A DNA stretch of 13,957 nucleotides, from the NCBI GenBank assembly GCA_040218735.1, contig JAVJQW010000045.1, forward strand, positions 1 to 13,957, in the 5' to 3' direction. This stretch comes from Deltaproteobacteria bacterium. GTDB lineage: Bacteria; Myxococcota; Kuafuiibacteriia; Kuafuiibacteriales; Kuafuiibacteriaceae. A program made the translations under genes and the position numbers. Each line of letters begins with the position of its first letter. Position 1 is the first letter of the stretch. The notes below the pieces were generated by a model that was not told where the DNA came from, searched no databases, and saw only the letters and a list, made by a program, of their open reading frames with translations. Positions 1-11,067 of this stretch are shown piece after piece.

Positions 1-1
1 G

Positions 2-265
2 CACAAGAGTCGGCTCGGACGCGAGCTTGTCGGCCAGGACGACGTCGAGGGCTACGCCTTCGAGGAGCTGGTCGCAGAGCTCGGGGCCGCGTTCCTGGCG
101 GCGCAATGCGGGCTGCCGCCGGACGACCGGCACCACGCGGCATACCTGCAGAGTTGGATCGCTGTCCTGGAGAAGGACCCGGGAGCTTTCGTGCGAGCCG
201 CATCGAAGGCGCGCAAGGCGAGTGAGTTCCTGATGGAGACGGCGGCGACCGAGCAGGCGGCGTAG
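2..265 (+). CDS. ardC: C-terminal part (5'-truncated by window) of ArdC-like antirestriction protein, zincin-like MPTase/PolyVal domain
   Basis: Not in the ORF track. Frame from base 2 reads HKSRLGRELVGQDDVEGYAFEELVAELGAAFLAAQCGLPPDDRHHAAYLQSWIAVLEKDPGAFVRAASKARKASEFL..., ending at TAG 263-265. The motifs H.SRL.R, YA.EELVAELGAAFL, HAAY..SW and AAS.A.KA are typical of the ArdC C-terminal domain. Confidence 0.82.
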   Translation, partial: HKSRLGRELVGQDDVEGYAFEELVAELGAAFLAAQCGLPPDDRHHAAYLQSWIAVLEKDPGAFVRAASKARKASEFLMETAATEQAA

Positions 266-291
266 TGGACGCGACGAAGGAGGACTTCACG

Positions 292-528
292 ATGCACGCT
301 TCGAGTTCACGACCACCCAAGCCGAGCCTCGAGGTTGGCGACCAAGTTCGGGTGCGCGGAGAGCTGCGCACGATCGCACGCGAGCCGTTCTGGCTCGACG
401 ACATGCAACGATGGCGCGTCCTGACGAACAATCCCGACCGCACGCAGCAGTTCGTCGACTGCGACGTGCTCGTGCCCGCAGCGCAGCTGCCGCTCTTCGG
501 AGCGCAGGAGCAGGCCACCGATGTCTAG
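292..528 (+). CDS. small hypothetical protein (~78 aa; LEVGDQVRVRG suggests a small SH3/KOW-like beta fold)
   Basis: Strong SD AAGGAGG at 277-283 before ATG 292. Follows the ardC stop on the same strand and overlaps the next ORF. Confidence 0.6.
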   Translation: MHASSSRPPKPSLEVGDQVRVRGELRTIAREPFWLDDMQRWRVLTNNPDRTQQFVDCDVLVPAAQLPLFGAQEQATDV

Positions 529-739
529 CGACGACCGACTCGACCCCAAGCTGGCCGCGACCCTCGACGTCATGAATCGCATCGGCAGCGTCACCGTGCG
601 GCGGACCGTCTTCGGCGATCGATGGTGTCCTGAGGGCACGGGGCGACACGTGACCCGAGCTCAACTCGACCGCCTTGTTCAGGCCGGACGGCTTCGTCGC
701 GAGGTCGACGGTGAAGTTGTCCGGTACACCACGAAGTAG
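521..739 (+). CDS. small hypothetical protein (72 aa; possible winged-helix-like C-terminus)
   Basis: ATG 521 with AGGAG upstream and an 8-bp overlap with the previous ORF. The C-terminus RAQLDRLVQAGRLRREVDGEVVRY resembles a helix plus wing. Confidence 0.55.
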   Translation: MSSDDRLDPKLAATLDVMNRIGSVTVRRTVFGDRWCPEGTGRHVTRAQLDRLVQAGRLRREVDGEVVRYTTK

Positions 740-749
740 GCCGCGGACT

Positions 750-1457
750 TCACCACACGAACGCGCTGTCGCACGACTCGCATCGAATCACTGTGGCCTC
801 CAGCACCTTGCGGCTCGCGCGGATGATGTGCTCGCACTGGCAGGTCGCCTTGACCAGGCGCGAACCCGGACGCTCGTCCTCGCCGCCGCCGGCGTCGTCG
901 CTTCGGTCGGTACCGCGTGCGCTCCCGCCTTGGACACCCCGCGACTTGCCGCCCTTCCCTCCGCTCCGCTGCGCCCGGCCAACGCGCGCGACGAGCGCGG
1001 ACCCGAGCCGATCGATCTGCGTGGCGTAGTGCTTCTTGGTCGCGCGAAGCAGGCTCGTCTCGGAGAAGCCGTAGTGCTCGGTGCGCTCGACGCGCAGCCC
1101 GAGCTCCTCGGCGGCGCGTTGGAAGTGCGCATTGTGGTACTGGCTCGCGGAGCAGTCCGAGACGCCGCGCACGTGGTTGAGCGCGTGCGCCGCTTCGTGC
1201 AGCAGCGTCTCGAACACCGCGTCGGGCTTGCGGTCGAGATACTCCGCGGTCACCACCACCTCGTGCAGGCGCTCGCCGCCCTGCGGCACCCAGCGCAGCG
1301 CGGCGAAGTGGCCGAGGACGCCCGCGCGGTGTGACGGCGCGGGCAACAGCATCACCGGCGGGACCTCGCGGTGCGTGGTGCTGATCGCTTGCCAGGCGTT
1401 GCTCAGCGCCTCGACCAGCTTCACGGCCTCGGGCTTCTTCGCGGTGCTGCGAGGCAT
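750..1457 (-). CDS. SprT-like zinc metalloprotease with C-terminal Zn-ribbon
   Basis: TLLHEAAH (HExxH) followed by QYHNAHF (third His ligand), a Gly-rich linker, and C-terminal CQC...CESC Zn ribbon. Confidence 0.8.
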   Translation of the reverse strand: MPRSTAKKPEAVKLVEALSNAWQAISTTHREVPPVMLLPAPSHRAGVLGHFAALRWVPQGGERLHEVVVTAEYLDRKPDAVFETLLHEAAHALNHVRGVSDCSASQYHNAHFQRAAEELGLRVERTEHYGFSETSLLRATKKHYATQIDRLGSALVARVGRAQRSGGKGGKSRGVQGGSARGTDRSDDAGGGEDERPGSRLVKATCQCEHIIRASRKVLEATVIRCESCDSAFVW

Positions 1458-1459
1458 GG

Positions 1460-1477
1460 TCGGTGTTTAAACACTGA
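1460..1477. promoter_or_regulatory. AT-rich palindrome (candidate operator / -10 region) directly upstream of the sprT-like gene
   Basis: Perfect 12-bp palindrome GTGTTTAAACAC at 1463-1474, extending imperfectly to TCGGTGTTTAAACACTGA. It lies 5 bp from ATG 1457 in otherwise very GC-rich DNA. Confidence 0.45.
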
Positions 1478-1526
1478 TTCGGCTCCGAAAGCCAAGAGGA
1501 AGCTGATGCGCGACGTCCCGCTCGTC

Positions 1527-1579
1527 GGGCGCGTCCCGCGCCCACTCGCCTGCGAAGCCTGGGGCCCGCTCCGTGGGCC
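1527..1579 (-). other. pair of GGA-loop hairpins 3' of VR1 (candidate DGR target-recognition cruciforms)
   Basis: Coding strand GGCCCAC-GGA-GCGGGCC (1579-1563, one mismatch) and GGGCGCG-GGA-CGCGCCC (1543-1527). Confidence 0.65.
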
Positions 1580-2466
1580 TACTGCCCTTCCAGAGCTCGA
1601 CCTCGGGCAAGCCGGAAGCCGACGACCCCGCCGCGATCGTCGCGGAGGTCCGCGCGGCGGAACGCCGCGCGGACGTACCTCGCGCCGTCGTACCACGAGC
1701 CGCCACGCAAGACGCGGGACGGGCGCTCCCCGGGCGCGAGGTACGGATCATGCTGCGCGTCCGTTGTGTACTCGCGATGCCAACCGTCGGCGCACCACTC
1801 GTCGACGTTCCCCAGCATGTCGTGCAGCCCGAACGCGTTGCGACGCCGCGTCTTCACCCTCCGGGTGCCCGCGCGCTCGTGCGGATACTGCTTCTCCGGC
1901 CAGCTCGACGAATCGTGCGCCTCCTCGAGATCGTAGCCTTCGCCCGAGTTTCCGCCGTACCACGCAAACAGGTCCAGCATCGGCGCGTTGTTGTTGCCCA
2001 GCAGCTCGATGGGTCCGTCGTACGGCGGCGCCTGCATGTTCGCGCGGCACGCGTACTCCCACTCCGCCTCCGTCGGCAGCCGCAGCCCAGGCACGAGCTC
2101 GGACGCCTTCGCCAGGAACGCGTTCGCGTCGTCCCACGAGACGTTCTCGACTGGCCGCCGGGGGTCGACGAAGTGGCTCGGGTTCGAACCCATCACCGCC
2201 TCCCACAATGCCTGCGTGCACGGCGTCTGCCCGAGCCAGAATCCCCGCGAGATCGTGACCGAGTGCTGCGGCCCTTCGTTGTCGCGCCGCACCGGCTCGC
2301 CGTCCGCCGAGCCCATCGTGAACGTCCCGGGCGGGATCCACCGCAGGATGTGCTCCACGCCGCCGATCTCGAACCCAACCCAAACGCCCTGCCGATCCTC
2401 GCCCCACGAAGAGGCCCACTCAGGCGGGATGCCGTCGTCGAGCGGGTTGAGGCGATCTTCGTTCAC
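1579..2466 (-). CDS. stand-alone FGE-sulfatase (formylglycine-generating-enzyme-like, CLec-fold) domain protein; DGR target 1
   Basis: Motifs RWIPPGTFTMGS, PVENVSWDDA, LRLPTEAEWEYACRA, NAFGLHDMLGNVDEWC, RGGSW...GFRLAR. Likely start GTG 2466 (GGGGTG upstream). The ORF-track start at 2736 lies inside the TR. Confidence 0.88.
   Translation of the reverse strand: MNEDRLNPLDDGIPPEWASSWGEDRQGVWVGFEIGGVEHILRWIPPGTFTMGSADGEPVRRDNEGPQHSVTISRGFWLGQTPCTQALWEAVMGSNPSHFVDPRRPVENVSWDDANAFLAKASELVPGLRLPTEAEWEYACRANMQAPPYDGPIELLGNNNAPMLDLFAWYGGNSGEGYDLEEAHDSSSWPEKQYPHERAGTRRVKTRRRNAFGLHDMLGNVDEWCADGWHREYTTDAQHDPYLAPGERPSRVLRGGSWYDGARYVRAAFRRADLRDDRGGVVGFRLARGRALEGQ
1602..1727 (-). repeat. DGR variable repeat VR1
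   Basis: 126 bp, ungapped against TR 2628-2753; 18 mismatches, all at TR adenines (coding strand). Encodes PSRVLRGGSWYDGARYVRAAFRRADLRDDRGGVVGFRLAR. Confidence 0.95.
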
Positions 2467-2627
2467 GCCGGCACCCCAACGTCGAGATGGCCGGTGCGCT
2501 CTCGCCGCGGCATCCACACGCGGGTACGCACGCACCAGCCTCCCACTTCCTTTTCGCTCCGCCGCACGATGCGACGAAGACAGGATGAAGATCGGGTCGA
2601 GCCCGGGTCGCCTGACCCACGCTCGCG
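2467..2627 (-). ncRNA. structured spacer 3' of TR (putative DGR RNA priming/structural region)
   Basis: Fold-back hairpin 2595-2628 and long stem GGCUGGUGCG/CGCACCGGCC (2540-2531 with 2498-2489) with inner CCGCG/CGCGG. The U-G wobble works only on the minus-strand transcript. Confidence 0.55.
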
Positions 2628-2753
2628 CTCGGGCAAGCCGGAAGCCGACGTTCTCGTTGCGATTGTCGCGGTGGTTCGCGTTGCGGTACGCCGCGCGGAC
2701 GTTCCTCGCGTTGTCGTTCCACGAGCCGCCACGCATGACGCGGTTCGGGCGCT
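2628..2753 (-). repeat. DGR template repeat (TR)
   Basis: Lies just 3' of the RT stop. Reads KRPNRVMRGGSWNDNARNVRAAYRNANHRDNRNENVGFRLAR with 8 AAC + 1 AAT codons and 27 adenines. Differs from the three VRs almost only at adenines. 3' end GAGCGCGAGC (IMH*) versus GAGGTCGAGC (IMH) in all VRs. Confidence 0.95.
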
Positions 2754-2800
2754 TCGGACCTTCACCCCGGCGGGATTGTCGAGCCTGCGCCGCCCCACGT

Positions 2801-3805
2801 CTACGCCTCCGCCGTCGGCGCGCGCTCGAGGTCGGCGCGCCGAAAGCCGCTGGCCTCCGCGTGGGCGGTGATGGCGAACGCCGCGTCGTAGGCGCGCTGC
2901 AGCGCGAGCGCGTCGAGCACTCCTTCGCGGTAGAGCGCCTCCCACGCCCTTCGGGACCGTGCGTAGCGGCGCATGCGCCGGCGCGACAGCTTCAGCACGC
3001 CGGGATAGATACGAAAGCCGAGGAACGAGAGCCCCGCGTGGCTCCGCTGCACGAAGCCTGGCCCCTTCGGGCGGAGATCGAGCACCTCCTGCAGGAGCAT
3101 CGCCGCCATCGTCCGAACGCGCTCCGCCTCCGCGCGCGTCTGCGTCCACGCGACCACGTCGTCCATGTAGCGGACGTAGCCTCGCACGCGGCCGTCCTCG
3201 GCGAGGCACCGGTCGAGCGGCGCGAGGTAGAAGTTCGCGAAGCTCTGCGACGTCAGCGACCCGATCGGGAGCCCGCGCCCCGCACCGAAGCCCCGGACGA
3301 TGCGGCGCACCAGTGCCCGCACTTCGCGGTCTTTCAGCTTGCGATCCAACGCCGTGCACAACCGGTCGTGGGGGATGCTCGCGAAGTACTTCGCGACATC
3401 GAGCTTCACGTACCAGGGCCAGCGCCGCGTGTGCACCTGCGCGCGCTGGACCGCGGCGAGGCTCCCCTTCCCGACGCGGCACGCGAACGTGTCGTCGACG
3501 AGGGCGCGGTCGAGCGTCGGTCCGATCGCGGCCATCAAGGCGTGGTGCACCACGCGGTCCTCGAACACCGGCGCGTGGATGACGCGCGGCTTCGGATCGC
3601 GAATGGAGAACCGTCGATACACATGGCTCGGGGCCGTTCCTTGGCGGAGGCCGTCGCCGAGCGCGGCCAGGTTGTCGTACGGCCGTCCGCGGAAGCGCTC
3701 CACGTCCTCGCGGCCCGTCTTGCCGCGCGCGGCGCGATGAAAGGCCGAGGCGAGCGCGCCGAGGTTCGCGACGTCGTCGAGCGTCGCGCGGCAGCGCTGT
3801 ACCAT
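2801..3805 (-). CDS. DGR reverse transcriptase (~334 aa)
   Basis: KPRVIHAPVFEDRVVHHAL, KLDVAKYFASIPH, GLPIGSLTSQSFANFYL (DGR-type SQ motif), YVRYMDD catalytic motif, FLGFRI. Start ATG 3805 overlaps the hrdc stop (TGATG). No maturase or endonuclease extension. Confidence 0.95.
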   Translation of the reverse strand: MVQRCRATLDDVANLGALASAFHRAARGKTGREDVERFRGRPYDNLAALGDGLRQGTAPSHVYRRFSIRDPKPRVIHAPVFEDRVVHHALMAAIGPTLDRALVDDTFACRVGKGSLAAVQRAQVHTRRWPWYVKLDVAKYFASIPHDRLCTALDRKLKDREVRALVRRIVRGFGAGRGLPIGSLTSQSFANFYLAPLDRCLAEDGRVRGYVRYMDDVVAWTQTRAEAERVRTMAAMLLQEVLDLRPKGPGFVQRSHAGLSFLGFRIYPGVLKLSRRRMRRYARSRRAWEALYREGVLDALALQRAYDAAFAITAHAEASGFRRADLERAPTAEA

Positions 3806-4281
3806 CAGGACACCACCGTCGGGAGGAGGAGCTCGCGCAGCAGCCCGAGGAACGCGGCGCCGTACTTGTCGACACGCCGTTCGCTCACGCCCGAGATGCG
3901 TCCGAGCGCCGCCTTCGAGGTCATGCGGTCCGTCACCATCTGCGCGAGCTGCTCGTTCGTGAACACGGAGTAGAGAGGCACGCCCGCTTCTGCGGCCTTG
4001 CGCTTTCGCAGCTCGCGAAGTCGCGCGAACACCGCGAAGTCCGACTCCGAAAGCACCTCGCGATAGTCCACCTTCGGTGACCGCGACGTCGTCGTCGTCG
4101 TCGTTTCCTCCGCCCTCGCGGCATCGGCGTAGGTGACACAGATGGCCCACGTCGCCGCGCCGTGCTCCGTCACGAGGTGACGGTCGACCGCCAACACGTT
4201 GCGCTGCGCGAGGAACTTGTTGAGGGCTTCCCAGCCCGGACGTGGGTCGAGGACGGGGATAGTGAAGAATTCGAGTTTCAT
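3805..4281 (-). CDS. HRDC-domain DGR accessory protein
   Basis: C-terminal FARLRELRKRKAAEAGVPLYSVFTNEQLAQM...ALGRISGVSERRVDKYGAAFL is an HRDC domain. Translationally coupled to the RT; hrdc is a known DGR accessory gene class. Confidence 0.88.
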   Translation of the reverse strand: MKLEFFTIPVLDPRPGWEALNKFLAQRNVLAVDRHLVTEHGAATWAICVTYADAARAEETTTTTTSRSPKVDYREVLSESDFAVFARLRELRKRKAAEAGVPLYSVFTNEQLAQMVTDRMTSKAALGRISGVSERRVDKYGAAFLGLLRELLLPTVVS

Positions 4282-4316
4282 CGGCAGCCATAGCGAATCG
4301 CGGACCGTGACGCCTC

Positions 4317-4469
4317 CGCCGGCGCGTCCCGCGCCGGCGCTCGGGACGGCTCCGCCGTCGGTCCTCCGAGCGACCCAGGAGCGTGTCCATGCATCGCCTC
4401 AGCCACGACTGTTCTTGCGTAACCCCTCCGGGCTCGGCGGCTCCGCCACGGGGACTCCCCCTCCGGGGG
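4317..4469 (-). other. cluster of GGA-loop hairpins 3' of VR2
   Basis: Coding strand CCCCC-GGA-GGGGG (4469-4457), GTGGC-GGA-GCCGC (4449-4437), GACGGC-GGA-GCCGTC (4359-4345) and CGCCGGCGCG-GGA-CGCGCCGGCG (4339-4317, 10-bp stem). Confidence 0.65.
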
Positions 4470-7400
4470 CTCGACCTCGGGCAAGCCGGAACCCGACGCC
4501 CGCGTGGCGAAAGTCGCGGTGGGAGGCGCGGCGGTACGCCGCGCGGACGTACCGCGCGCTGCCGACCCACGAGCCGCCACGCGAGACGCGGCTCGGGCGC
4601 TCCCCTGGCTCCGCCAGGGGGTCAGTGACAGGAGCGTCCGGGTACGGATCAGGCCTGCCATCGGCTCCGTCAGCGCACCACTCCCAGATATTCCCCAGCA
4701 TGTCGTATAGGCCCCACGGGTTCGGGATCTTGGTTCGCACGGCACGCGTCCCAGCCTTCGGGGTCGGGTACTGCATTTCGCCCCAGTCCGAGGTGTCGTG
4801 CCCCTCCTCGAGGTCGTAGCCCTGGCCGCTGTTGCCTCCGTACAAAGCGATGGCGTCGAGCGCCGGAGCGTTGCGATCGCCGAGAATCTCGATCGGCCCG
4901 CCGTAAGTCGCCGCCGTGGTCCCTGCGCGGCACGCATACTCCCACTCCGCCTCGGTCGGCAGCCGCAGCGCCAGCTCGACGTGCTGTCGGTTCAGCGCCG
5001 CCATGAACGCCACCGCATCGTCCCACGACACGTTCTCCACCGGCCGGTCGCGGGTTCGAAAGCGACTCGGGTTGGCCTCCTTGCCGAGCACCGCCTCGTA
5101 GAGCGCCTGCGTGCACGGCGTCTCCGCCAGCCAGTAACCCTGGGTCAGCGTGACTTGGTGCTGCTTCTCTCGATTGAAGCGCCCCGGTTCGTCTTCGGGC
5201 GAACCCATCATGAAGCGGCCCGGCGGAATCCAACGCATCCGGATCACCTCCGGCACCACCCGCGTCTCCACCTCGACGTCCGCGAACAGTCCGAACCGAT
5301 CGCGCCCGACTCCCGAAGCCCACTCGGGTCGTTCGAAGGGTTCAAGATCGAGCGACACGAGATCGGTCTCGAGCCGAACCGGCGCGCGCAGATCGATCGG
5401 GATGCGCGTGTCGGCGTCCAGCCGAACGCTGCGGATCACGTGCGGCTCGGTCTCGCGCGTCCCGCGCGGCCCGGCCGAGCTGGAGCTGGAAGCCGGCTCC
5501 GCCGGCCCCGGACTGGACTGGGCTCGACCTCGGGCAAGCCGGAAGCCGACGTGCTCGAGGCGATCGTCGCGGTGGAACGCGTAGCGGAACGCCGCGCGGA
5601 CGCTCCTCGCGAAGTCGAGCCACGAGCCGCCACGCATGACGCGGTACGGGCGCTCCCCTGGCTCCGCCAGGGGGTCCGTGACGGGGCCGTCGGGGTACGG
5701 ATCAGGCTCGCCCCAGCCCTTCGCCCCGTCGGCGCACCACTCGCGGACGTTCCCGAGCATGTCGTGCAGGCCCCATGCGTTGGGCTCGCGGGTCTTGACG
5801 TCGTGGGTCTCGCCCTCGCTGTTCTCGGCGTACCAAGCGACTGCACCCAACGGGCCATAGGGCGCCTCAGCGGAGCCGGCGCGACACGCGCGCTCCCACT
5901 GCGCCTCGGTGGGTAGAACGAGGTCGAGCCCCGGGACCTGCGCGTTCAGCGTCGCCAGGAAGACTTGCACGTCGTCGAAGCTCACTTGCTCGACGGGTCG
6001 CTGAGGCCCCTTGAAGCCGGACGGCTCGTCGTTCATCACCGCCGACCAAAGCGCCTGCGTGCACGGCGTCTCGGCCAACCAATACCCCTCGCTCAACGTC
6101 ACCTCGTGCTGTGTCTCGCCTTCGTGGCGCTCCTCCTCGTCCTCGGGTGAACCCATCAGGAACGTCCCGCCCGGGATCCACCGCATCACCTGCTCAACGC
6201 CCGCGACCTCGAACGATGCCCAGCGGCCGAACTGGTCGTTGCCCCCTCGGCTCGCCCACGCTGGCGCGAGCCGCTCCACGCGGAGCTTCGAACGCGTCGC
6301 CCGAAGGTCGATCGGCGAGTCCAGCACCGAGCCCAGCGACGTCAGGAACCCACCGCGCACATAGAGTCGGTGCGTCGCGCTCGCCGGCACGCCGGAGACC
6401 CGTCGCCCGTCGACGAGGTGCTGGAGGCGCCGGACCCATCGGCCCATGGCCTCGTCCGCCTCGAAGTCGATCTCGCCCTTGCGCTCGTCGAGGTGCTCGT
6501 ACCACGCCAGGGCCCGGTCTCTGTCGGTAGCGCCAAAGGTGCCGGTCTCCAGCGCCCGCGTGAGCTTCTCCAGATGGAGGTGCGCGGCGCGGCGCGCGTC
6601 CTCGGGGACGAGGTGGGCCTGGCCCATCGCGAGCAGGCCGAGGTACGTCTCGACCCAGACCTGCGCTGCGGTCGCGGACGCCGCCAAACGCTCGACGGCG
6701 GCGCGGCGGACGCCTACATCTCGCGCGAGGAAGCCAGCTCGAAGCGCGGCACGCGCCTTGTTGCCGATGCGCGCGCGCCCGGTGATGGTGTGGCGGACAC
6801 GTGTGTCGTGCCAAGCGGCGCACTCCACCGCTGTGCTCCGTTCGCTCGTCGCCGCTCGGAGTCCGACTGCGTCGAAGACCACCGCGAAGGACATCAGCTC
6901 CAGAACGGCCGTGACCTCCTCGTGCGATACTGTCTCTACATCCGAGACCGACCGCCAAGGTGGCGGCACGCGACGCCGACCGAGCGATAGCATCAGCGTA
7001 GGTGTTCGATGCCTCGCGAGAGACCGACCCAACGCGGACCACGGAGACCGTCGCCTTGGCTCGGCGAGCGCCAAGAAGCGGTCGGGCGAACTCGCGACCG
7101 CCGCGACCGCCTGAGCCGTGAGCCCACACGGACCGTCCGGCAGGTACTCGACGACAACGCGCTCATGACCAAACGCACGAACGAGGCCGTCGAGGATCAC
7201 TTCGTAGTCCGCCGCGAAGGGGCGCGCGTCCGAGGTGTCGTCGACGAGCACCCAAACACGACCCTCGAGGTGCCGGACACGCTCGCGCGGAATTGGGTCG
7301 ATCGGGCGGCACGTGGCGTAGCGATCGACGAGCTCAATCGTGTCCACGGCTCCCCACGAAGCGTCCCCCGTGAGCAGACGACGAAGCTTCGACGCCCAAT

Positions 7401-7734
7401 CCTCCCACCGCACGCGTGGAGGCGGCACCGCGGGCGGGGGAGACGGGGCATGAAGCTCACGGGGAGTCATCGTCGGACCATTCCGACCGGCGAGCGGTTG
7501 AGAGGGATCCTCGAACTCGACGCGGCGAACGACACGTACGAAGGTCGCAGACGGCAACCGCTCCGACTCTGGCTCGAGCCCGGACGATCGGAGGTGCTCC
7601 ACACGAGAATTCGGAGCCGGGAGGACGACGCGGGGGTGATGGCTCATCCCGAGCATCGGCGCCACCCGGATGACCTCGTCGCGGTCCATCCGCACGAGCA
7701 TCCGGAGGAGGTCCGCTCGCCCGATCGTCTTCAC
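4399..7734 (-). CDS. ternary-system vWA component: degenerate vWA-like N-terminus, helical region, two tandem FGE-sulfatase (CLec) domains, each with a DGR VR (1111 aa)
   Basis: GTG start overlaps the MoxR stop (GTGA). GAVDTIELVDRYA...PIPRER then VWVLVDDTSDARPF resembles the vWA strand-1/MIDAS region in degenerate form. Two complete FGE domains at about 6265-5520 and 5335-4470. Confidence 0.85.
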   Translation of the reverse strand: MKTIGRADLLRMLVRMDRDEVIRVAPMLGMSHHPRVVLPAPNSRVEHLRSSGLEPESERLPSATFVRVVRRVEFEDPSQPLAGRNGPTMTPRELHAPSPPPAVPPPRVRWEDWASKLRRLLTGDASWGAVDTIELVDRYATCRPIDPIPRERVRHLEGRVWVLVDDTSDARPFAADYEVILDGLVRAFGHERVVVEYLPDGPCGLTAQAVAAVASSPDRFLALAEPRRRSPWSALGRSLARHRTPTLMLSLGRRRVPPPWRSVSDVETVSHEEVTAVLELMSFAVVFDAVGLRAATSERSTAVECAAWHDTRVRHTITGRARIGNKARAALRAGFLARDVGVRRAAVERLAASATAAQVWVETYLGLLAMGQAHLVPEDARRAAHLHLEKLTRALETGTFGATDRDRALAWYEHLDERKGEIDFEADEAMGRWVRRLQHLVDGRRVSGVPASATHRLYVRGGFLTSLGSVLDSPIDLRATRSKLRVERLAPAWASRGGNDQFGRWASFEVAGVEQVMRWIPGGTFLMGSPEDEEERHEGETQHEVTLSEGYWLAETPCTQALWSAVMNDEPSGFKGPQRPVEQVSFDDVQVFLATLNAQVPGLDLVLPTEAQWERACRAGSAEAPYGPLGAVAWYAENSEGETHDVKTREPNAWGLHDMLGNVREWCADGAKGWGEPDPYPDGPVTDPLAEPGERPYRVMRGGSWLDFARSVRAAFRYAFHRDDRLEHVGFRLARGRAQSSPGPAEPASSSSSAGPRGTRETEPHVIRSVRLDADTRIPIDLRAPVRLETDLVSLDLEPFERPEWASGVGRDRFGLFADVEVETRVVPEVIRMRWIPPGRFMMGSPEDEPGRFNREKQHQVTLTQGYWLAETPCTQALYEAVLGKEANPSRFRTRDRPVENVSWDDAVAFMAALNRQHVELALRLPTEAEWEYACRAGTTAATYGGPIEILGDRNAPALDAIALYGGNSGQGYDLEEGHDTSDWGEMQYPTPKAGTRAVRTKIPNPWGLYDMLGNIWEWCADGADGRPDPYPDAPVTDPLAEPGERPSRVSRGGSWVGSARYVRAAYRRASHRDFRHAGVGFRLARGRAPGGGVPVAEPPSPEGLRKNSRG
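4476..4601 (-). repeat. DGR variable repeat VR2 (C-terminal FGE domain)
   Basis: 126 bp versus TR: 21 mismatches, 18 at TR adenines and 3 not (4492, 4525, 4583). Encodes PSRVSRGGSWVGSARYVRAAYRRASHRDFRHAGVGFRLAR. Confidence 0.92.
5454..5506 (-). other. pair of GGA-loop hairpins 3' of VR3, inside the coding interdomain linker
   Basis: GCCGGC-GGA-GCCGGC (5506-5492) and CGCGCG-GGA-CGCGCG (5468-5454). Same order and similar spacing as after VR1. Confidence 0.65.
5529..5654 (-). repeat. DGR variable repeat VR3 (internal FGE domain)
   Basis: 126 bp versus TR: 14 mismatches, all at TR adenines. Encodes PYRVMRGGSWLDFARSVRAAFRYAFHRDDRLEHVGFRLAR. Confidence 0.95.
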
Positions 7735-8762
7735 GTCTCGTGTTTCGCGTTCTTATCGAAGAAGAACTCGCCAACGTCGTCGAGGAGCTCCTCCCGCGCC
7801 TTCGACACGCTGACGCCCCGCCTCTTCGCCTCGACGGGACCCAGGACGACGAGCGTGCGAAGGAGGTCGATGAGCTCGGCTTGTCCAGGAGCCGCAAGCC
7901 CGAGATCCGACAAACGCTTGCGGTCCGTGGCGAGCTGCTTCGCCGCCGTGCGTACGAGGTCGTCGCTGAGGATCGCCGCGTCGGGGAAGTGCGCGCGCCC
8001 CCTGTCGAACAGCCAATCCTCGTAGCCGTCGCCCTTCCCCATTCGGTGCACGACGCAGCGACGGAGGAACGCCTTGGGCAAGGTCCGCTCTTCGTTCGTG
8101 GTAATGACGACGAGCGGCGGGACGCCGGGCTGGGCCACCTCTTCGAAGCCCAGCGCATCGAAGCGACGTTCACCCAATGCTTCGAGCAAGCCGTTGGGGA
8201 CGGACTCCTCGGCCTTATCGATCTCGTCGATCAGGACCACGACGCCGTCGCGCTTCGCGTCGAACGCGTCCGGGTGCCAGGGTCGTTCGAGCGTCTCCAG
8301 TCGCTCGTCACCCGCGCTCGGCGGCTCCCCGAAGCGCGCACGAAAGCGCTGCTCCGTAGCTCCTTGCCAGTCGAACGCCCACCACAGCACCCCCGGCTCC
8401 ACGAAGTAGCGCTCCTCGAGCAACACCTCGTCCTTGAATTTCGGCGTCGCCTGAAGCTGCGCCCTCGCCAGGCGTCGAACGGCGTCATACGTGTACAGGA
8501 GGTCCCGCGACTCCGTCCGGGCGTCGACGACCTTCGAGACGAAGGCGCGACCCGTGTGCACCGCGGCAGCGCGGGCGAGCTGGCTCTTGCCGACGCCCGG
8601 GAGTCCACGGAGCAGGAGTGGTCTCGAGGCTGCGAGCGCGGCGTTGACGGCGCGGATGTCCTGCGCGTCGAAGACGTGTGGACACGCTTCGCGCCCGCCA
8701 ATGGGAGGCAGCGCATAGCGCTCATCGGGCTCGACCTCGAGCAAGCGGGGGGTATCGGTCAC
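7731..8762 (-). CDS. MoxR-family AAA+ ATPase
   Basis: Walker A GLPGVGKS, Walker B VVLIDEIDKA, sensor-1/Arg finger VITTNEERTLPKAFLRRC, and YTYDAVRRLARAQ insert. GTGA overlaps at both ends. Confidence 0.93.
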   Translation of the reverse strand: MTDTPRLLEVEPDERYALPPIGGREACPHVFDAQDIRAVNAALAASRPLLLRGLPGVGKSQLARAAAVHTGRAFVSKVVDARTESRDLLYTYDAVRRLARAQLQATPKFKDEVLLEERYFVEPGVLWWAFDWQGATEQRFRARFGEPPSAGDERLETLERPWHPDAFDAKRDGVVVLIDEIDKAEESVPNGLLEALGERRFDALGFEEVAQPGVPPLVVITTNEERTLPKAFLRRCVVHRMGKGDGYEDWLFDRGRAHFPDAAILSDDLVRTAAKQLATDRKRLSDLGLAAPGQAELIDLLRTLVVLGPVEAKRRGVSVSKAREELLDDVGEFFFDKNAKHET

Positions 8763-10240
8763 GGTGGGGCCTCGTCGAACAAGGGCGCGATCGTCTCGAG
8801 CATATGCGCCTCGATCGTCAGGATCACGTCATCCTCGGAAGCACGCAAGAACAGGACGTCCAGATCGATCTCAGCGGCTTCGAGTTCGGCTTTGAAGTCC
8901 TCTGCGAACTGCGCATCGACCCGGTCTTCACGAAAAACGACGAGGTATCGGCGCTCTCCACGCTTCGCCTGCTTCTTGGTCGCGCGCGCCATGGCCCTCT
9001 TGAGAATTCCCTGATGCTGGCTAGCTCGATACTGCTTTCGCTGCGCATAGCTCGCGACCGTCTGCGTGACCGCGGCGATCACTTCCTTCGCCTGCGCACC
9101 GCCGGTCATCGCCGTGACGTCCACCTCGAGGCGATGGACAGAGTCGAGCTCGTTCTTGTCCCGTACGAAGTCGGCAGGGCGACCCATGGCAGCGGCCGCC
9201 ATGCACTCCGCGATGGCATTCGAGTAGCCACTACATACGAGAATCGGAGATCCCGCGACGAGCGATTCGGTCACCTCTTCGCCTCGATCTCGCAACCCCA
9301 CAACCCCTGGCAGGAGCGCGCATACCCACCGCGCAAGAACAGCTCGACCTCCGGCTGGTGGGTTCTCGGCGACCTCCTCCACGGTCTCGAGGAGGTCATC
9401 CGGCGATTGCGACTCGCAGGCCTTCCCGAGGTCGACGGGGGTCGTCCTGTCGTCGAGACCGAACGTCTGGCACAGGCGGAGGCGAAGCCACGCGGCCTCC
9501 GCGCCGGAGAGGGCCGCAGCGATCTCGTTGCGCTGCTCCTCGCGGATGCGCGCGTACCGCTCACGACGGGCGTGGCCCAGCTCTTCGGCGGACAGCTCCG
9601 TCGGCGCACCGGGCGCTTCGGAGTCCAGCGCACCGGCACCCGCCAGGAATGGGTGACTTGGCACGGCCCCTCGCAGCGTTCCGACAACGTGGGCGATCGG
9701 AATGATCCAACCCGACTTCGGCTCGGACCTCTCGCGGGAGACGGTCAATCCGGCGAGGTAGAAAACGCCAGCTTCCTCGATGAACACCGGGCCGCCGCTG
9801 AACCCCTTCGCCGTCTCGGCTGCGAGCTGCCAGACCTGCCGTTTCGGGTCGTAGCTGGACAGCTGTGTCGGGTGGGACTCGTAGGATCTGGTCGCTGTTC
9901 CGCGATACCCATGGAGTTGAACGGAGTCTCCGAACGACAAGCCTCGATCCCAGCAGGTCGCCGACAAGCCAAACCTCAGCGGCGCCGCGAGCTCGAGGAA
10001 CACGAAGTCATCTCGCTCGGGAGGCTCATCCATCGGCATTTCGGGCAGGACACGTTGGACTGGGCGCCAGAAGTCAGGCTGGTCGCCGCCCTGAACGTGT
10101 ACGGTCAGGTCTTTCGGATCGCGGCCGACGATGCCGTGCGCGCAGGTCAGAGCGAGGCCGTCCGTGAGGAACACGGCGGAGAGGATCGGTGTGCCGTTCG
10201 CCCGGACTCGGCCGACGAGCAAGCTAGGCCTCTTCGTCAC
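8759..10240 (-). CDS. trypsin-like serine peptidase fused to an uncharacterised C-terminal region (VMAP-position component of a MoxR/vWA ternary system)
   Basis: Catalytic triad motifs LTCAHG, DDFVFLEL and KGFSGGPVF in the first ~190 aa. About 280 aa of helical/alpha-beta C-terminus. Sits directly upstream of MoxR. Confidence 0.8.
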   Translation of the reverse strand: MTKRPSLLVGRVRANGTPILSAVFLTDGLALTCAHGIVGRDPKDLTVHVQGGDQPDFWRPVQRVLPEMPMDEPPERDDFVFLELAAPLRFGLSATCWDRGLSFGDSVQLHGYRGTATRSYESHPTQLSSYDPKRQVWQLAAETAKGFSGGPVFIEEAGVFYLAGLTVSRERSEPKSGWIIPIAHVVGTLRGAVPSHPFLAGAGALDSEAPGAPTELSAEELGHARRERYARIREEQRNEIAAALSGAEAAWLRLRLCQTFGLDDRTTPVDLGKACESQSPDDLLETVEEVAENPPAGGRAVLARWVCALLPGVVGLRDRGEEVTESLVAGSPILVCSGYSNAIAECMAAAAMGRPADFVRDKNELDSVHRLEVDVTAMTGGAQAKEVIAAVTQTVASYAQRKQYRASQHQGILKRAMARATKKQAKRGERRYLVVFREDRVDAQFAEDFKAELEAAEIDLDVLFLRASEDDVILTIEAHMLETIAPLFDEAPP

Positions 10241-10583
10241 CGGGATCGCCTGCCGCCGGGCCCTTGGAAGGCTCGTTCTTCCAGAGCGCTTCGATCTCGA
10301 TCGCCGCCTCTGCCGTTCCTTTCGTCACGATGGGTATGCCAACCTCACCGGCGAACTTCAGCCCGAACTTGACCTTCAACTCGTCAGGGCGGTTGGCCTT
10401 CGTGAAGGCCCCGAGCACGACGTCACACGTCGACGCGATCGATCCCCGGAGTTCCTCGACGGCGTCGATGATCTTGTCGGTGGCGTCGGTCCGTTCGGTC
10501 CCCGAGGAATCGTCCCCAGGGAGCTCGGCGACCCCCTCCTCCACCTCAACGAGGAACTCTCCAACCTTGATGACTCTCCCCAC
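10224..10583 (-). CDS. Trypco1 / CU044_2847-like trypsin-co-occurring protein (~119 aa)
   Basis: PDELKVKFGLKFAGEVGIPIVTKGTAEAAIEIEALW matches the family's PDE..V.FG......G......G..EA...V...W pattern. GTG 10583 has SD GGGAGG; the stop overlaps the trypsin gene start by 17 bp. Confidence 0.78.
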   Translation of the reverse strand: MGRVIKVGEFLVEVEEGVAELPGDDSSGTERTDATDKIIDAVEELRGSIASTCDVVLGAFTKANRPDELKVKFGLKFAGEVGIPIVTKGTAEAAIEIEALWKNEPSKGPAAGDPGDEEA

Positions 10584-10648
10584 AGCACCCTCCCGAAGAG
10601 CCCGAAGGGTATCACGACGTACGTCGCCACATCTCCAGGACGCGACCG

Positions 10649-11038
10649 CTAGAAGGGGATTTCGTTCTCCCCCGGCACCGGCTCGTGCGGCTCGCCGCTC
10701 GTCTTCGAGCCCTCGGCCAGGAACAGCACCCGGTCCGCCTTCACCTCGGTCGTCCAGCGCTTGTTGCCGTTCTTGTCCTCCCACTCGCTGTTCTGCAGGC
10801 GCCCCTCGACGAGGACGCCGCGGCCGCGACGCAGGTGCTCGCCGCACGTCTCGCCCTGCTTTCCCCAGACGACGATGCGGTGCCAGTCGGTCCGCTCCTG
10901 CATCGCGCCGTCGACGTCCTTCCAGCGCTCCGTCGTCGCGATGCGGAAGTTCGCGACGGCCGTTCCGCCCTGCGTGTAGCGCATCTCGGGATCCGCACCG
11001 AGGTTCCCCATCAGCATCACCTTGTTGAAGTTGCTCAT
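10649..11038 (-). CDS. ssb: single-stranded DNA-binding protein (129 aa)
   Basis: [46 protein letters not shown] and acidic tail ENEIPF. SD AAGGAG before ATG 11038. Confidence 0.95.
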
Positions 11039-11067
11039 CCGTAGCTCCTTTCGGTCCTTCGCTTCGT

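Follow-up and report, generated by a model that had tools for sequence, protein, structure and literature searches.

DGRs with multiple targets, with tandem VR-bearing CLec domains and with remote targets have all been described, as far as the available text of two papers extends (Wu et al. 2018, PMC5758913; Dore et al. 2024, PMC10907252). The same portion of the former reports an HRDC accessory gene in 14 of 372 DGRs, about half of them without avd. For VMAP ternary systems, a link to DGRs is reported for cyanobacteria and gammaproteobacteria in the accessible sections of Kaur et al. (2020, PMC7159879), and no experiment ties any such system to defence, as Dore et al. state in the available part of their paper. 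That DGRs can be carried by plasmids and ICEs is already known from the excerpts consulted; a literature search combining DGR, plasmid and Myxococcota found none, with subscription journals thinly covered.

Here, we analyse a window of 13,957 nucleotides (the whole stretch of DNA under study) and consider it probable that it holds a DGR that diversifies likely sensors of a MoxR/trypsin conflict system and is cargo of a likely conjugative plasmid in a likely myxobacterium. No single feature is new; the locus is a clear further example of a described system type. It would bring a likely myxobacterial host into the range of DGR-diversified MoxR conflict systems, the proposed bacterial antigen sensors, and suggests a concrete route of spread through a cargo slot of variable content on a multi-copy backbone of plasmid type. 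It also offers a compact 9-kb test case for Avd-less DGR function with a basic HRDC protein coupled to the RT, for internal VR targeting by hairpins encoded in frame, and for whether such sensors defend against anything.

Template, targets and reverse transcriptase

The genes of the element lie on one strand in the order Trypco1-trypsin-MoxR-T2-HRDC-RT-TR-T1 (minus strand, as are all features of the DGR and its operon given below). The template repeat TR (2628..2753; 126 bp) contains 27 A and nine in-frame Asn codons and would encode a repertoire of about 3.5e14 protein variants per VR without any reachable stop codon. In ungapped comparisons over the 126 bp, with significance given as hypergeometric P, mismatches to TR fall at TR adenines in 18/18 cases for VR1 (1602..1727; C-terminal in T1; P 1.7e-15), in 14/14 for VR3 (5529..5654; internal, T2 aa 695-735; P 1.5e-11) and in 18/21 for VR2 (4476..4601; T2 aa 1046-1086, near the C-terminus; P 1.7e-12), in which the non-A mismatches are at TR positions 19, 77 and 110. 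The first-pass annotation, which had proposed one TR and three VRs in cis in two genes flanking the RT, was correct in this layout; its hand counts were reproduced, and the adenine bias on which it had staked the assignment is present in the computed alignment (P 1e-11 to 1e-15). As it also stated, codons for S, Y, V, L, G, F, R, D or H stand in the targets where TR has its nine Asn codons, and the GGSW, VRAA and GFRLAR scaffold is unaltered. VR1 and VR3 equal TR at all 99 non-A positions, compared with CLec bodies that are 68-79% identical where aligned.

A whole-genome search for remote VRs, which had been recommended, was run as an ungapped scan of the assembly (G000) and added a fourth repeat outside the window. 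VR4 (C52, 43103-43228) has 21 A and 5 non-A mismatches to TR and lies in a broken TIR-CLec gene, a pseudogene; the template likely also supplied changes to this repeat. At most five mismatches at the 99 non-A positions were found only in TR, VR1-3 and VR4, the next best sequence having 31, and TR is the sole template repeat found in the assembly. FGE genes on C8, C55, C61 and C9 were rejected as targets: they have at least 31 non-A mismatches, and the three that were checked are not followed by a hairpin. Three of the 27 TR adenines (positions 1, 88 and 125) are unaltered in all four VRs. Identical substitutions are shared between the four VRs at chance level in 6/6 pairs (P 0.12-0.95), in agreement with VRs that were rewritten independently, as previously suggested. 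Contigs from run X1, which may be the window's own source, span 1422-4496 and 4469-10732 with 0 differences among the matches listed, and T2 is identical in 4/4 other records, which may not be independent and one of which is the window's own contig; thus, misassembly is not the source of the repeats. Altogether, we regard it as practically certain that the locus is a real DGR, and all three cis VRs are very probably its targets.

T1 (1579..2466; 295 aa, GTG start) is a short CLec/FGE-type target (PF03781, E 1e-45) and is identical to record P0128, also of 295 aa. T2 (4399..7734; 1111 aa) is a long target in which an N-terminal extension precedes two tandem CLec/FGE domains, each containing one VR. 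T1, T2 (two matches) and the C52 gene all match PF03781, with the VR inside the CLec fold. The best solved relative of T2 is TvpA (2Y3C, E 8.5e-20), and neither T1 nor T2 has a signal peptide evident by eye.

The RT (2801..3805; 334 aa, PF00078) has an intact frame with YMDD at aa 213-216, bearing out the earlier statement that its catalytic motif is intact. Its best solved relative is 8UB7 chain A (E 1e-38), presumably the DGR RT of Bordetella phage BPP-1, followed by another RT at E 3e-15. Contendobacter and Marichromatium supply the named close homologues (53-55%; 179/333 identical for Marichromatium gracile), and close RTs are sporadic (3/401 genomes of the phylum sample, own genome included). 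A second DGR RT or TR was not found in the assembly, where other RT matches are weak (C28, 28% identity; C20, E 1e-10). The HRDC accessory gene (3805..4281; 158 aa, pI 9.2; PF00570, E 3e-18), overlooked by the first-pass annotation, overlaps the RT start with its stop codon. This gene also immediately precedes the RT in the related loci L018, L020, L021 and L028, and in P0015 and L021 HRDC is in one ORF with an RT lacking the N-terminal part. bAvd (PF22296) was not found in the assembly, which is 96.5% complete, and we infer that the basic HRDC protein stands in place of Avd.

Cis signals and activity of the element

The IMH-like 3' tail on the VR side (1595..1601 for VR1) starts with GT in 4/4 own VRs versus CG in the own TR; with relatives included, it starts with GT in 9/10 VRs and with CG in 5/5 TRs (L019, a duplicate of another locus, is excluded from all counts). 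GGA-loop hairpins, which the earlier reading had overlooked, lie behind all four VRs: a perfect 7-bp hairpin behind VR1 (1527..1543), a 5-bp hairpin behind VR2 within coding sequence (4457..4469) and, behind VR3, two 6-bp hairpins (5492-5506 and 5454-5468; together 5454..5506) that form part of the in-frame coding sequence for the linker joining the CLec domains of T2. An imperfect hairpin behind VR1 was read from the sequence at 1563-1579. Defined as a GRA loop on a stem of at least 5 bp no more than 100 nt behind the repeat, hairpins occur at 4/4 own VRs and 4/6 relatives' VRs, compared with 1/5 TRs, 0/5 non-VR CLec ends and 138/20000 random windows. The exceptions are L028, where the VR lacks a hairpin yet the TR has one, and one VR of L021. 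MFE folds of the TR 3' spacer, from which we draw no conclusion, place a hairpin directly behind the TR in four loci, and an Rfam search of the window gave no family above cut-off. Following the BPP-1 model, the RT would copy TR-containing RNA with errors at A, and the cDNA would replace the VR starting from its GC-rich 3' end. We suggest that the GT-versus-CG tail sets the direction of transfer and that the GGA-loop hairpin marks a target; if so, the internal VR3 needs its hairpins in the protein linker.

A sister element bears on the history of rewriting. Its RT (P0126) is identical to that of the element at 303/334 positions and the body of its T1 (P0129, MEQ9503160.1) at 209/247, and in the repeat this T1 differs from VR1 at 14/16 TR-mutable codons and at 0/25 fixed codons; VR rewriting, therefore, did happen. 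All changes in the sister VR are reachable by A-to-N from the TR of the element. Among the 40 best matches in a second sample, 20 VR positions are listed with a different letter, 19 of them TR adenines, and the 4 letters that occur in none of the five repeats of the assembly are 4/4 at TR adenines; these extra A-specific alleles are best explained as coming from a sister locus in runs X2-X5, which may or may not be the sister element above.

The claim of an active multi-target DGR, thus, holds on an evolutionary time scale, as judged from non-A identity and the sister codons, and does not extend to the present samples, in that no turnover is seen across other assemblies or the second sample. 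Rewriting by the element was recent on that evolutionary scale. That it is now dormant or swept, with its machinery intact but repressed or deprived of a host factor so that the VRs are frozen, is an account to which we give slightly less than even weight. It would fit the identity of the T1 and T2 VRs in all other records (T1 is identical in both cluster members, possibly non-independent records) and, among the matches listed from the second sample, the 0 differences in VR1 in X3 and X4 (in X2, 310 nt contain 2 differences, which are unplaced). The depth of the VR1 contig in X2 (95.9 versus 98-104 in the unique part, among the matches listed) points the same way, as do the three non-A changes in VR2 and the decay of the VR4 gene. 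Against dormancy, no part of the machinery (RT, HRDC, TR, tails, hairpins) is broken, and VR1 and VR3 have 0 non-A mismatches while the CLec bodies have diverged. An ambiguous sign in this direction is that VR contig depth is below that of the unique part in X3 and X5 among the matches listed. Moreover, the sample comparison used assembled contigs, which drop rare variants, and such contigs are unable to reveal them.

Operon, carrier and possible roles

Upstream of T2, the first-pass annotation overlooked an operon for Trypco1, a trypsin-like peptidase and MoxR, in which start and stop codons overlap from trypsin through MoxR to T2, as they do between HRDC and RT. MoxR (7731..8762; 343 aa) is a MoxR-like AAA+ ATPase (PF07728, E 3e-12; weak bpMoxR and AAA_3 matches) with Walker motifs present. 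The trypsin-like peptidase (8759..10240; 493 aa), in the VMAP position, matches PF13365 at E 1e-4, below the curated cut-off; its His/Asp/Ser motifs are intact, and Atlas serine protease clusters match at 0.98. For its C-terminal 279 aa, Pfam gives no family even with E allowed up to 10, and a VMAP-C domain was not matched on the peptidase, the Atlas VMAP-C row aligning with the trypsin part only. Trypco1 (10224..10583; PF19493, E 1.5e-16) is an adaptor whose start was placed from a Shine-Dalgarno-like stretch. The series from MoxR through the long target, HRDC, RT and TR to the short target is found again in L018, L020 and L021, where other genes lie upstream, among them a metallophosphoesterase protein in L021 and, by eye, a TIR/trypsin-looking ORF in L020.

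Several searches with the T2 extension returned little: no Pfam match for aa 1-490, no BLASTP match to the L021 target's N-terminal part, only the element's own protein in a word-index search, Atlas matches all under 0.9, and no vWA or usable match by Foldseek with either N-terminal model. VIA-align places a vWA as top match of the N-domain (Z 9.8-10.0, rmsd 2.3-2.6, 107-110 aligned), with non-vWA folds within 1 Z (HPRT ties at Z 9.3), and outlines a candidate vWA-like alpha/beta domain at about aa 152-265 (6940..7281). This domain has the sequence DDTSD, which we take to be a degenerate MIDAS-like motif. VWA_CoxE is matched in 1/18 T2 homologues scanned. We take the extension to contain a likely, though weakly called, divergent vWA-like domain. 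By analogy, the balance of the evidence favours the targets as sensors of a conflict system. Following published predictions, an invader molecule bound by a CLec variant would signal via the vWA-like domain and MoxR, and this signalling would release the trypsin-like protease so that the infected cell is harmed.

The element fills a cargo slot of 9.2 kb (1481..10649) in a backbone present in three copies in the genome: homology to the paralogous contig C44 ends at 1480 and resumes at 10650. The left arm (1..1480), 93.5% identical to C44, contains the 3' end of an ArdC-like gene (1-265, plus strand; the C44 ORF matches ArdcN and MPTase-PolyVal), followed by two small ORFs and an SprT-like gene (750-1457; minus strand for the SprT-like gene). 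The right arm (10650..13957; minus strand) encodes ssb and a 960-aa Ig-like protein, and its end overlaps contig C51. C44 and C68 hold other genes in the slot (an RND efflux set and a DUF6161 protein), and the C68 slot retains a 59-bp relic of a CLec gene. C51, joined by end overlap, has TrbI/VirB10 below cut-off, and C30, joined by end overlaps, has TraC/VirB4, ParA and, below cut-off, a RepA-like match; the path from the window to this VirB4/Rep contig passes through collapsed repeats, and linkage on the same molecule is a candidate. Related RTs are on three plasmid records, two of them typed as conjugative. The carrier is, in our judgement, probably of plasmid type and conjugative.

Alternatively, the diversified domains could serve the plasmid rather than the host by recognizing competing conjugative elements (e.g., the sibling backbones) or recipients, the protease being an exclusion or addiction effector. 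The position on a three-copy backbone adjoining ArdC, ssb and transfer genes, the TR-compatible target on the sister element and the CLec relic in the same slot of C68 agree with such a role. We nevertheless consider it unlikely because the same gene order is found in relatives that may lie outside plasmids, because published examples in the available text are mostly cellular loci (PMC10907252), and because the efflux set and DUF6161 protein in the slot look host-beneficial. A further, improbable idea, which we put forward tentatively, is that coexisting myxobacterial conjugative plasmids with Avd-free HRDC hypermutator cargo, as sisters sharing a TR scaffold, rewrite one another's sensors as well as chromosomal ones (the TIR-CLec gene on C52) in trans. 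If true, a transferable, population-shared adaptive recognition repertoire would spread by conjugation.

A reading in which gene conversion has homogenised ordinary FGE paralogues, TR being the tail of a longer ORF (1579-2736, 385 aa), is highly improbable: TR is in frame with T1 with no intervening stop and a public gene call (P0152, 385 aa) begins within TR, but gene conversion gives no adenine bias (found at P ≤ 1.5e-11) and is refuted by it, the nine Asn codons are in the TR copy alone, TR has the CG tail and no hairpin, only 48 nt separate TR from a DGR-type RT, and the short T1 start is used in most relatives. The 385-aa fusion ORF was judged a by-product of an Asn-rich frame in GC-rich DNA.

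Comparison with described systems

We compared the element with known systems as far as the available text of each source describes them. At the level of cis signals, it resembles the BPP-1 DGR (Guo et al. 2011, PMC3240598) in the GC-rich VR 3' end, the VR/TR tail mismatch and the downstream hairpin. BPP-1 uses Avd and a four-base GRNA loop and has a single target, in the phage tail; the element has GGA three-base loops, often several per VR. GRA three-base loops within the target gene are shared with the DUSEL4 archaeal DGRs (Paul et al. 2015, PMC4372165).

The HRDC accessory and FGE-type CLec target are shared with architecture C (HRDC) DGRs, e.g., Treponema denticola TvpA (Wu et al. 2018, PMC5758913), among which several and remote targets as well as internal VRs are known. 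By contrast, the HRDC protein of the element has a pI of 9.2 versus a mean of 6.9 in that group, and its targets are tied to a MoxR operon and have no signal peptide evident by eye.

Similarities to VMAP ternary systems (Kaur et al. 2020, PMC7159879) are the order, 5' to 3', of a peptidase-bearing third component, MoxR and a vWA-type protein with a C-terminal FGS effector (the last place being taken here by T2 with its weak vWA call), Trypco1 beside trypsin, and the DGR link. In a test of gene order, the positional match is trypsin protein, MoxR and T2 with overlapping starts and stops. Different from those systems, the element has no VMAP-C match, and WxhapG and PsWRxa motifs were not found by eye in the short N-terminus of MoxR. 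The element works like a ternary system and is not classed as a VMAP system.

The clade 5B DGRs of Thiohalocapsa PB-PSB1 (DGR 4/5) and Marichromatium purpuratum (Dore et al. 2024, PMC10907252) likewise have tandem VR-containing CLec domains in one target, with MoxR, Trypco1, a trypsin-like peptidase and targets served in trans also described. They have a recognised vWA and three CLecs in a single target; the element has a weak structural vWA call and a second short target. The clade 5A MoxR-DGRs of the same paper (PB-PSB1 DGR 8 and relatives) have MoxR immediately upstream of a long target whose N-terminal extension is unnamed, a short CLec-only second target and, often, Trypco and trypsin genes. 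The element differs in having two VR-bearing CLec domains in its long target, an HRDC accessory ("HRDC" has 0 matches in their nine supplementary files), a likely myxobacterial host (their RT table has one Myxococcota row) and a position as cargo in a plasmid-type slot. Altogether, judged by its layout, the element matches the description of clade 5A, the MoxR-associated cellular DGRs.

Adenine-directed repeats and their turnover

The window is one entire contig (C69) of assembly G000 (11.6 Mb, ~69% GC) and carries a repeat family with four copies, at 1593, 2619, 4467 and 5520. The copy at 2628-2753 on the minus strand is the template repeat (TR); it contains 27 adenines, and nine of its in-frame codons specify Asn. 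The others are variable repeats (VRs). All 18 mismatches between VR1 (1602-1727) and the TR lie at TR adenines (hypergeometric P = 1.7e-15), as do 18 of the 21 in VR2 (4476-4601; P = 1.7e-12) and all 14 in VR3 (5529-5654; P = 1.5e-11). The recomputed comparison reproduces exactly the mismatch counts of the first-pass annotation, its list of residues replacing Asn and its invariant GGSW, VRAA and GFRLAR scaffold. Pooled with a fourth VR on another contig, the changes at TR adenines (n = 71) comprise 29 A>T, 28 A>G and 14 A>C. The same substitution is not shared by two VRs above chance in any of the six pairs (P 0.12-0.95). Thus, the VRs were not copied from a single mutated allele, which bears out the earlier proposal that they were mutagenised independently. 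As computed from the TR, 16 codons are mutable, giving ~3.5e14 protein variants per VR with no stop codon reachable. Altogether, the window holds a real, well-formed multi-target diversity-generating retroelement (DGR).

VR1 and VR3 are identical to the TR at every non-A position, while the three CLec bodies are only 68-79% identical in their aligned parts; the repeats were therefore homogenised recently. Among public records, a 119,840-bp contig holds a sister element whose RT is identical at 303 of 334 residues (P0126) and whose short target has a body identical at 209 of 247 (P0129). Between its VR and VR1, 14 of the 16 mutable codons differ and none of the 25 fixed codons does. Arguing against turnover at present, the long target T2 is identical in four of four other records, and the short target T1 in both cluster members. 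In a second sample from another study (S2), 4763 nt are identical to the window and, among the matches listed, VR1 is unchanged in runs X3 and X4; this turnover comparison rests on assembled contigs, which drop rare variants. Also among the listed contig matches, summed depth over the VR in run X2 is 1090-1220 versus ~100 per copy, and X2 contigs at depth 120-130 include diverged HRDC and target sequences that X1, the possible source run, lacks. We read the extra depth and the diverged contigs as a sister DGR in S2 and not as alleles of the window loci. Among the matches listed, 19 of the 20 VR positions that carry other letters in S2 are TR adenines. Given the unchanged copies on the one side and the divergence from the sister element on the other, a real DGR whose VRs are now frozen is a serious possibility, if somewhat short of probable, and is compatible with the other readings. 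Gene conversion among the repeats in place of a DGR could account for their homogenisation and, set against mismatches concentrated at TR adenines, is exceedingly improbable.

Operon proteins, targets and cis signals

Read along the minus strand, which carries every gene of the system, the order is Trypco1 (10224-10583), trypsin-like peptidase (8759-10240), MoxR-like ATPase (7731-8762), T2 (4399-7734), HRDC gene (3805-4281), RT (2801-3805), TR and T1 (1579-2466). Stop and start codons overlap along trypsin/MoxR/T2 and between HRDC and RT. T2 carries a pair of FGE-type CLec domains, each with a VR: VR3 is internal (aa 695-735), and VR2 lies close to the end of the protein (aa 1046-1086). The nearest solved structures are TvpA for the CLec and 8UB7, which we take to be the BPP-1 RT, for the RT. 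P0002, a record of this RT, lies on an 86-kb contig and has changes at 2 of the 334 residues, together with an identical T2. The peptidase keeps its His, Asp and Ser motifs, and a Pfam search gave no VMAP-C match in its C-terminal half. No bAvd was found in genome G000. Because the HRDC protein has a basic pI (9.2) and its gene directly precedes the RT in each of the four related loci compared, we infer that it likely fills the place of Avd. In locus L021 (9530-10402) and in P0015, HRDC and an N-terminally incomplete RT form a single ORF, lacking ~200 and ~70 RT residues, respectively; these are either deletions or a fused form.

For the N-terminus of T2, Pfam gave no match, and a VWA_CoxE match falls in the matched region of one of 18 scanned relatives (23 found). 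For two AlphaFold models, with a mean pLDDT of 80 and 89, the top structural match is a vWA domain (Z 9.8 and 10.0), a lead tied within 1 Z by other alpha/beta folds in both; Foldseek did not recover a vWA domain with either. This domain is likely vWA-like. Residues 268-447 (window 6393-6933) are helical and, in the model, align with helical parts of a STAND protein and MalT (Z 8.4-8.5, rmsd ~5), which may reflect a mere common helical arrangement.

Directly past the shared repeat end, GT follows all four VRs of this DGR and CG follows the TR; across five DGR loci, nine of ten VRs have the GT tail and five of five TRs the CG tail. Hairpins with a GRA loop (nearly all GGA) and a stem of ≥5 bp, ≤100 nt behind the repeat, were found for 4/4 own VRs and 4/6 VRs of relatives, versus 1/5 TRs, 0/5 non-VR CLec ends and 138/20000 random windows. 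The internal VR3 has two, encoded in frame within the interdomain linker. Homing in BPP-1 is described as needing a hairpin behind the VR with a GRNA loop (PMC3240598), in contrast to the GRA loops here; archaeal DGRs are described with GRA three-base loops within target genes (PMC4372165), as in the window DGR. A further predicted hairpin directly behind the TR (2599-2625), with counterparts in loci L018, L020 and L021, may be part of the DGR RNA spacer. The long target of L018 (5485-7113) also has tandem CLec domains, of which only the internal one matches the TR (15 A and 3 non-A differences); the terminal one has neither VR nor hairpin. In L028 (10100-10240; genome G082), the RT and target share one strand and the TR is on the other, the GT/CG contrast is kept, and a hairpin lies near the TR with none behind the VR.

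A likely remote target on another contig

A scan of all 70 contigs on both strands, scored at 99 non-A positions, returned a sole additional match: VR4 (C52:43103-43228) differs at 21 A and 5 non-A positions, against 31 non-A mismatches for the runner-up. VR4 is followed by the GT tail and by three hairpins, terminates a CLec domain preceded by DNA encoding a TIR_2 domain (E = 4e-9), and is likely a remote target. This TIR-CLec gene (C52:41930-43263; L001:11930-13264) is broken by a stop and frameshifts and is now probably a pseudogene. By eye, it lies at one end of a cluster of polysaccharide type, with a flippase-like gene on one side and, on the other, an ORF whose C-terminus resembles HNH. 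Since VR4 shares its non-A change at position 110 with VR2 and that at position 101 with at least five contigs of the second sample, it may follow a sister TR and not the window TR.

Carrier, mechanism and comparison with known systems

The DGR lies between two arms with paralogues elsewhere in the genome. The left arm (1-1480) is 93.5% identical to a copy on C44, and C68 covers 1-772 at 92%; for the right arm (10650-13957), identity to C44 is 91%, and C68 covers 10841-13957 at 90%. On C44, the space between the arms holds ~1.8 kb with a DUF6161 protein; on C68, it holds an RND efflux set and a 59-bp CLec gene relic. This CLec/FGE relic (C68:763-819; L025) is 90% identical to window 1791-1848 and abuts the left arm, a joint also present in contigs of X1, X2, X3 and X5 among the matches listed; it suggests that the C68 sibling element once had a T1-like target, lost together with sprT. 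The arms encode ArdC, a SprT-like protein, SSB and an Ig-like protein. On the plasmid-type backbone, this Ig-like protein (960 aa; 11068-13950) occurs in three close copies, on C69, C44 and C68, and in three distant ones, on C10, C51 and C62. Contig-end overlaps lead from the arms to C51 (kinase, sigma-54 activator and, below cut-off, TrbI) and on to C30 (TraC/VirB4, ParA and, below cut-off, a RepA-like protein), and the same proteins are recorded on 86-kb and 136-kb contigs. The carrier is likely a conjugative plasmid, and only likely because the contig path runs through collapsed repeats. A myxobacterium is the likely host. Of 401 genomes sampled from the phylum, 3 have a close RT, and 1388 proteins in a large collection match at E < 1e-40; the RT family is wide but patchy. 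A role of the diversified domains in plasmid competition would suit such a carrier, and we consider it unlikely.

By analogy with the established BPP-1 model, the RT would make errors at A when copying a TR RNA, and the resulting cDNA would replace the VR starting from its GC-rich 3' end. The tail and hairpin would license each of the four VRs, and HRDC would substitute for Avd. We suggest that the CLec domains act as sensors and that MoxR and the vWA-like domain would switch on the protease, following the proposal of Dore et al. (PMC10907252).

As described by Dore et al. (PMC10907252), MoxR in clade 5A loci is accompanied by a target with a long extension, a short target consisting of CLec only, and Trypco/trypsin neighbours; in clade 5B loci, CLec domains with VRs occur in tandem, and there are targets in trans. 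Kaur et al. (PMC7159879) defined the ternary order of genes, Trypco1 and the connection to DGRs. Wu et al. (PMC5758913) report HRDC in 14 of 372 DGRs, multiple targets in ~15% and one CLec1 target with two internal VRs, and DGRs on mobile elements are already known (10.1101/2024.11.15.621889). Our literature search, thin in subscription journals, turned up no paper that brings together DGR, plasmid and Myxococcota. The gain over known systems is thus modest and lies in the likely host, HRDC as the only accessory and the cargo-slot setting.
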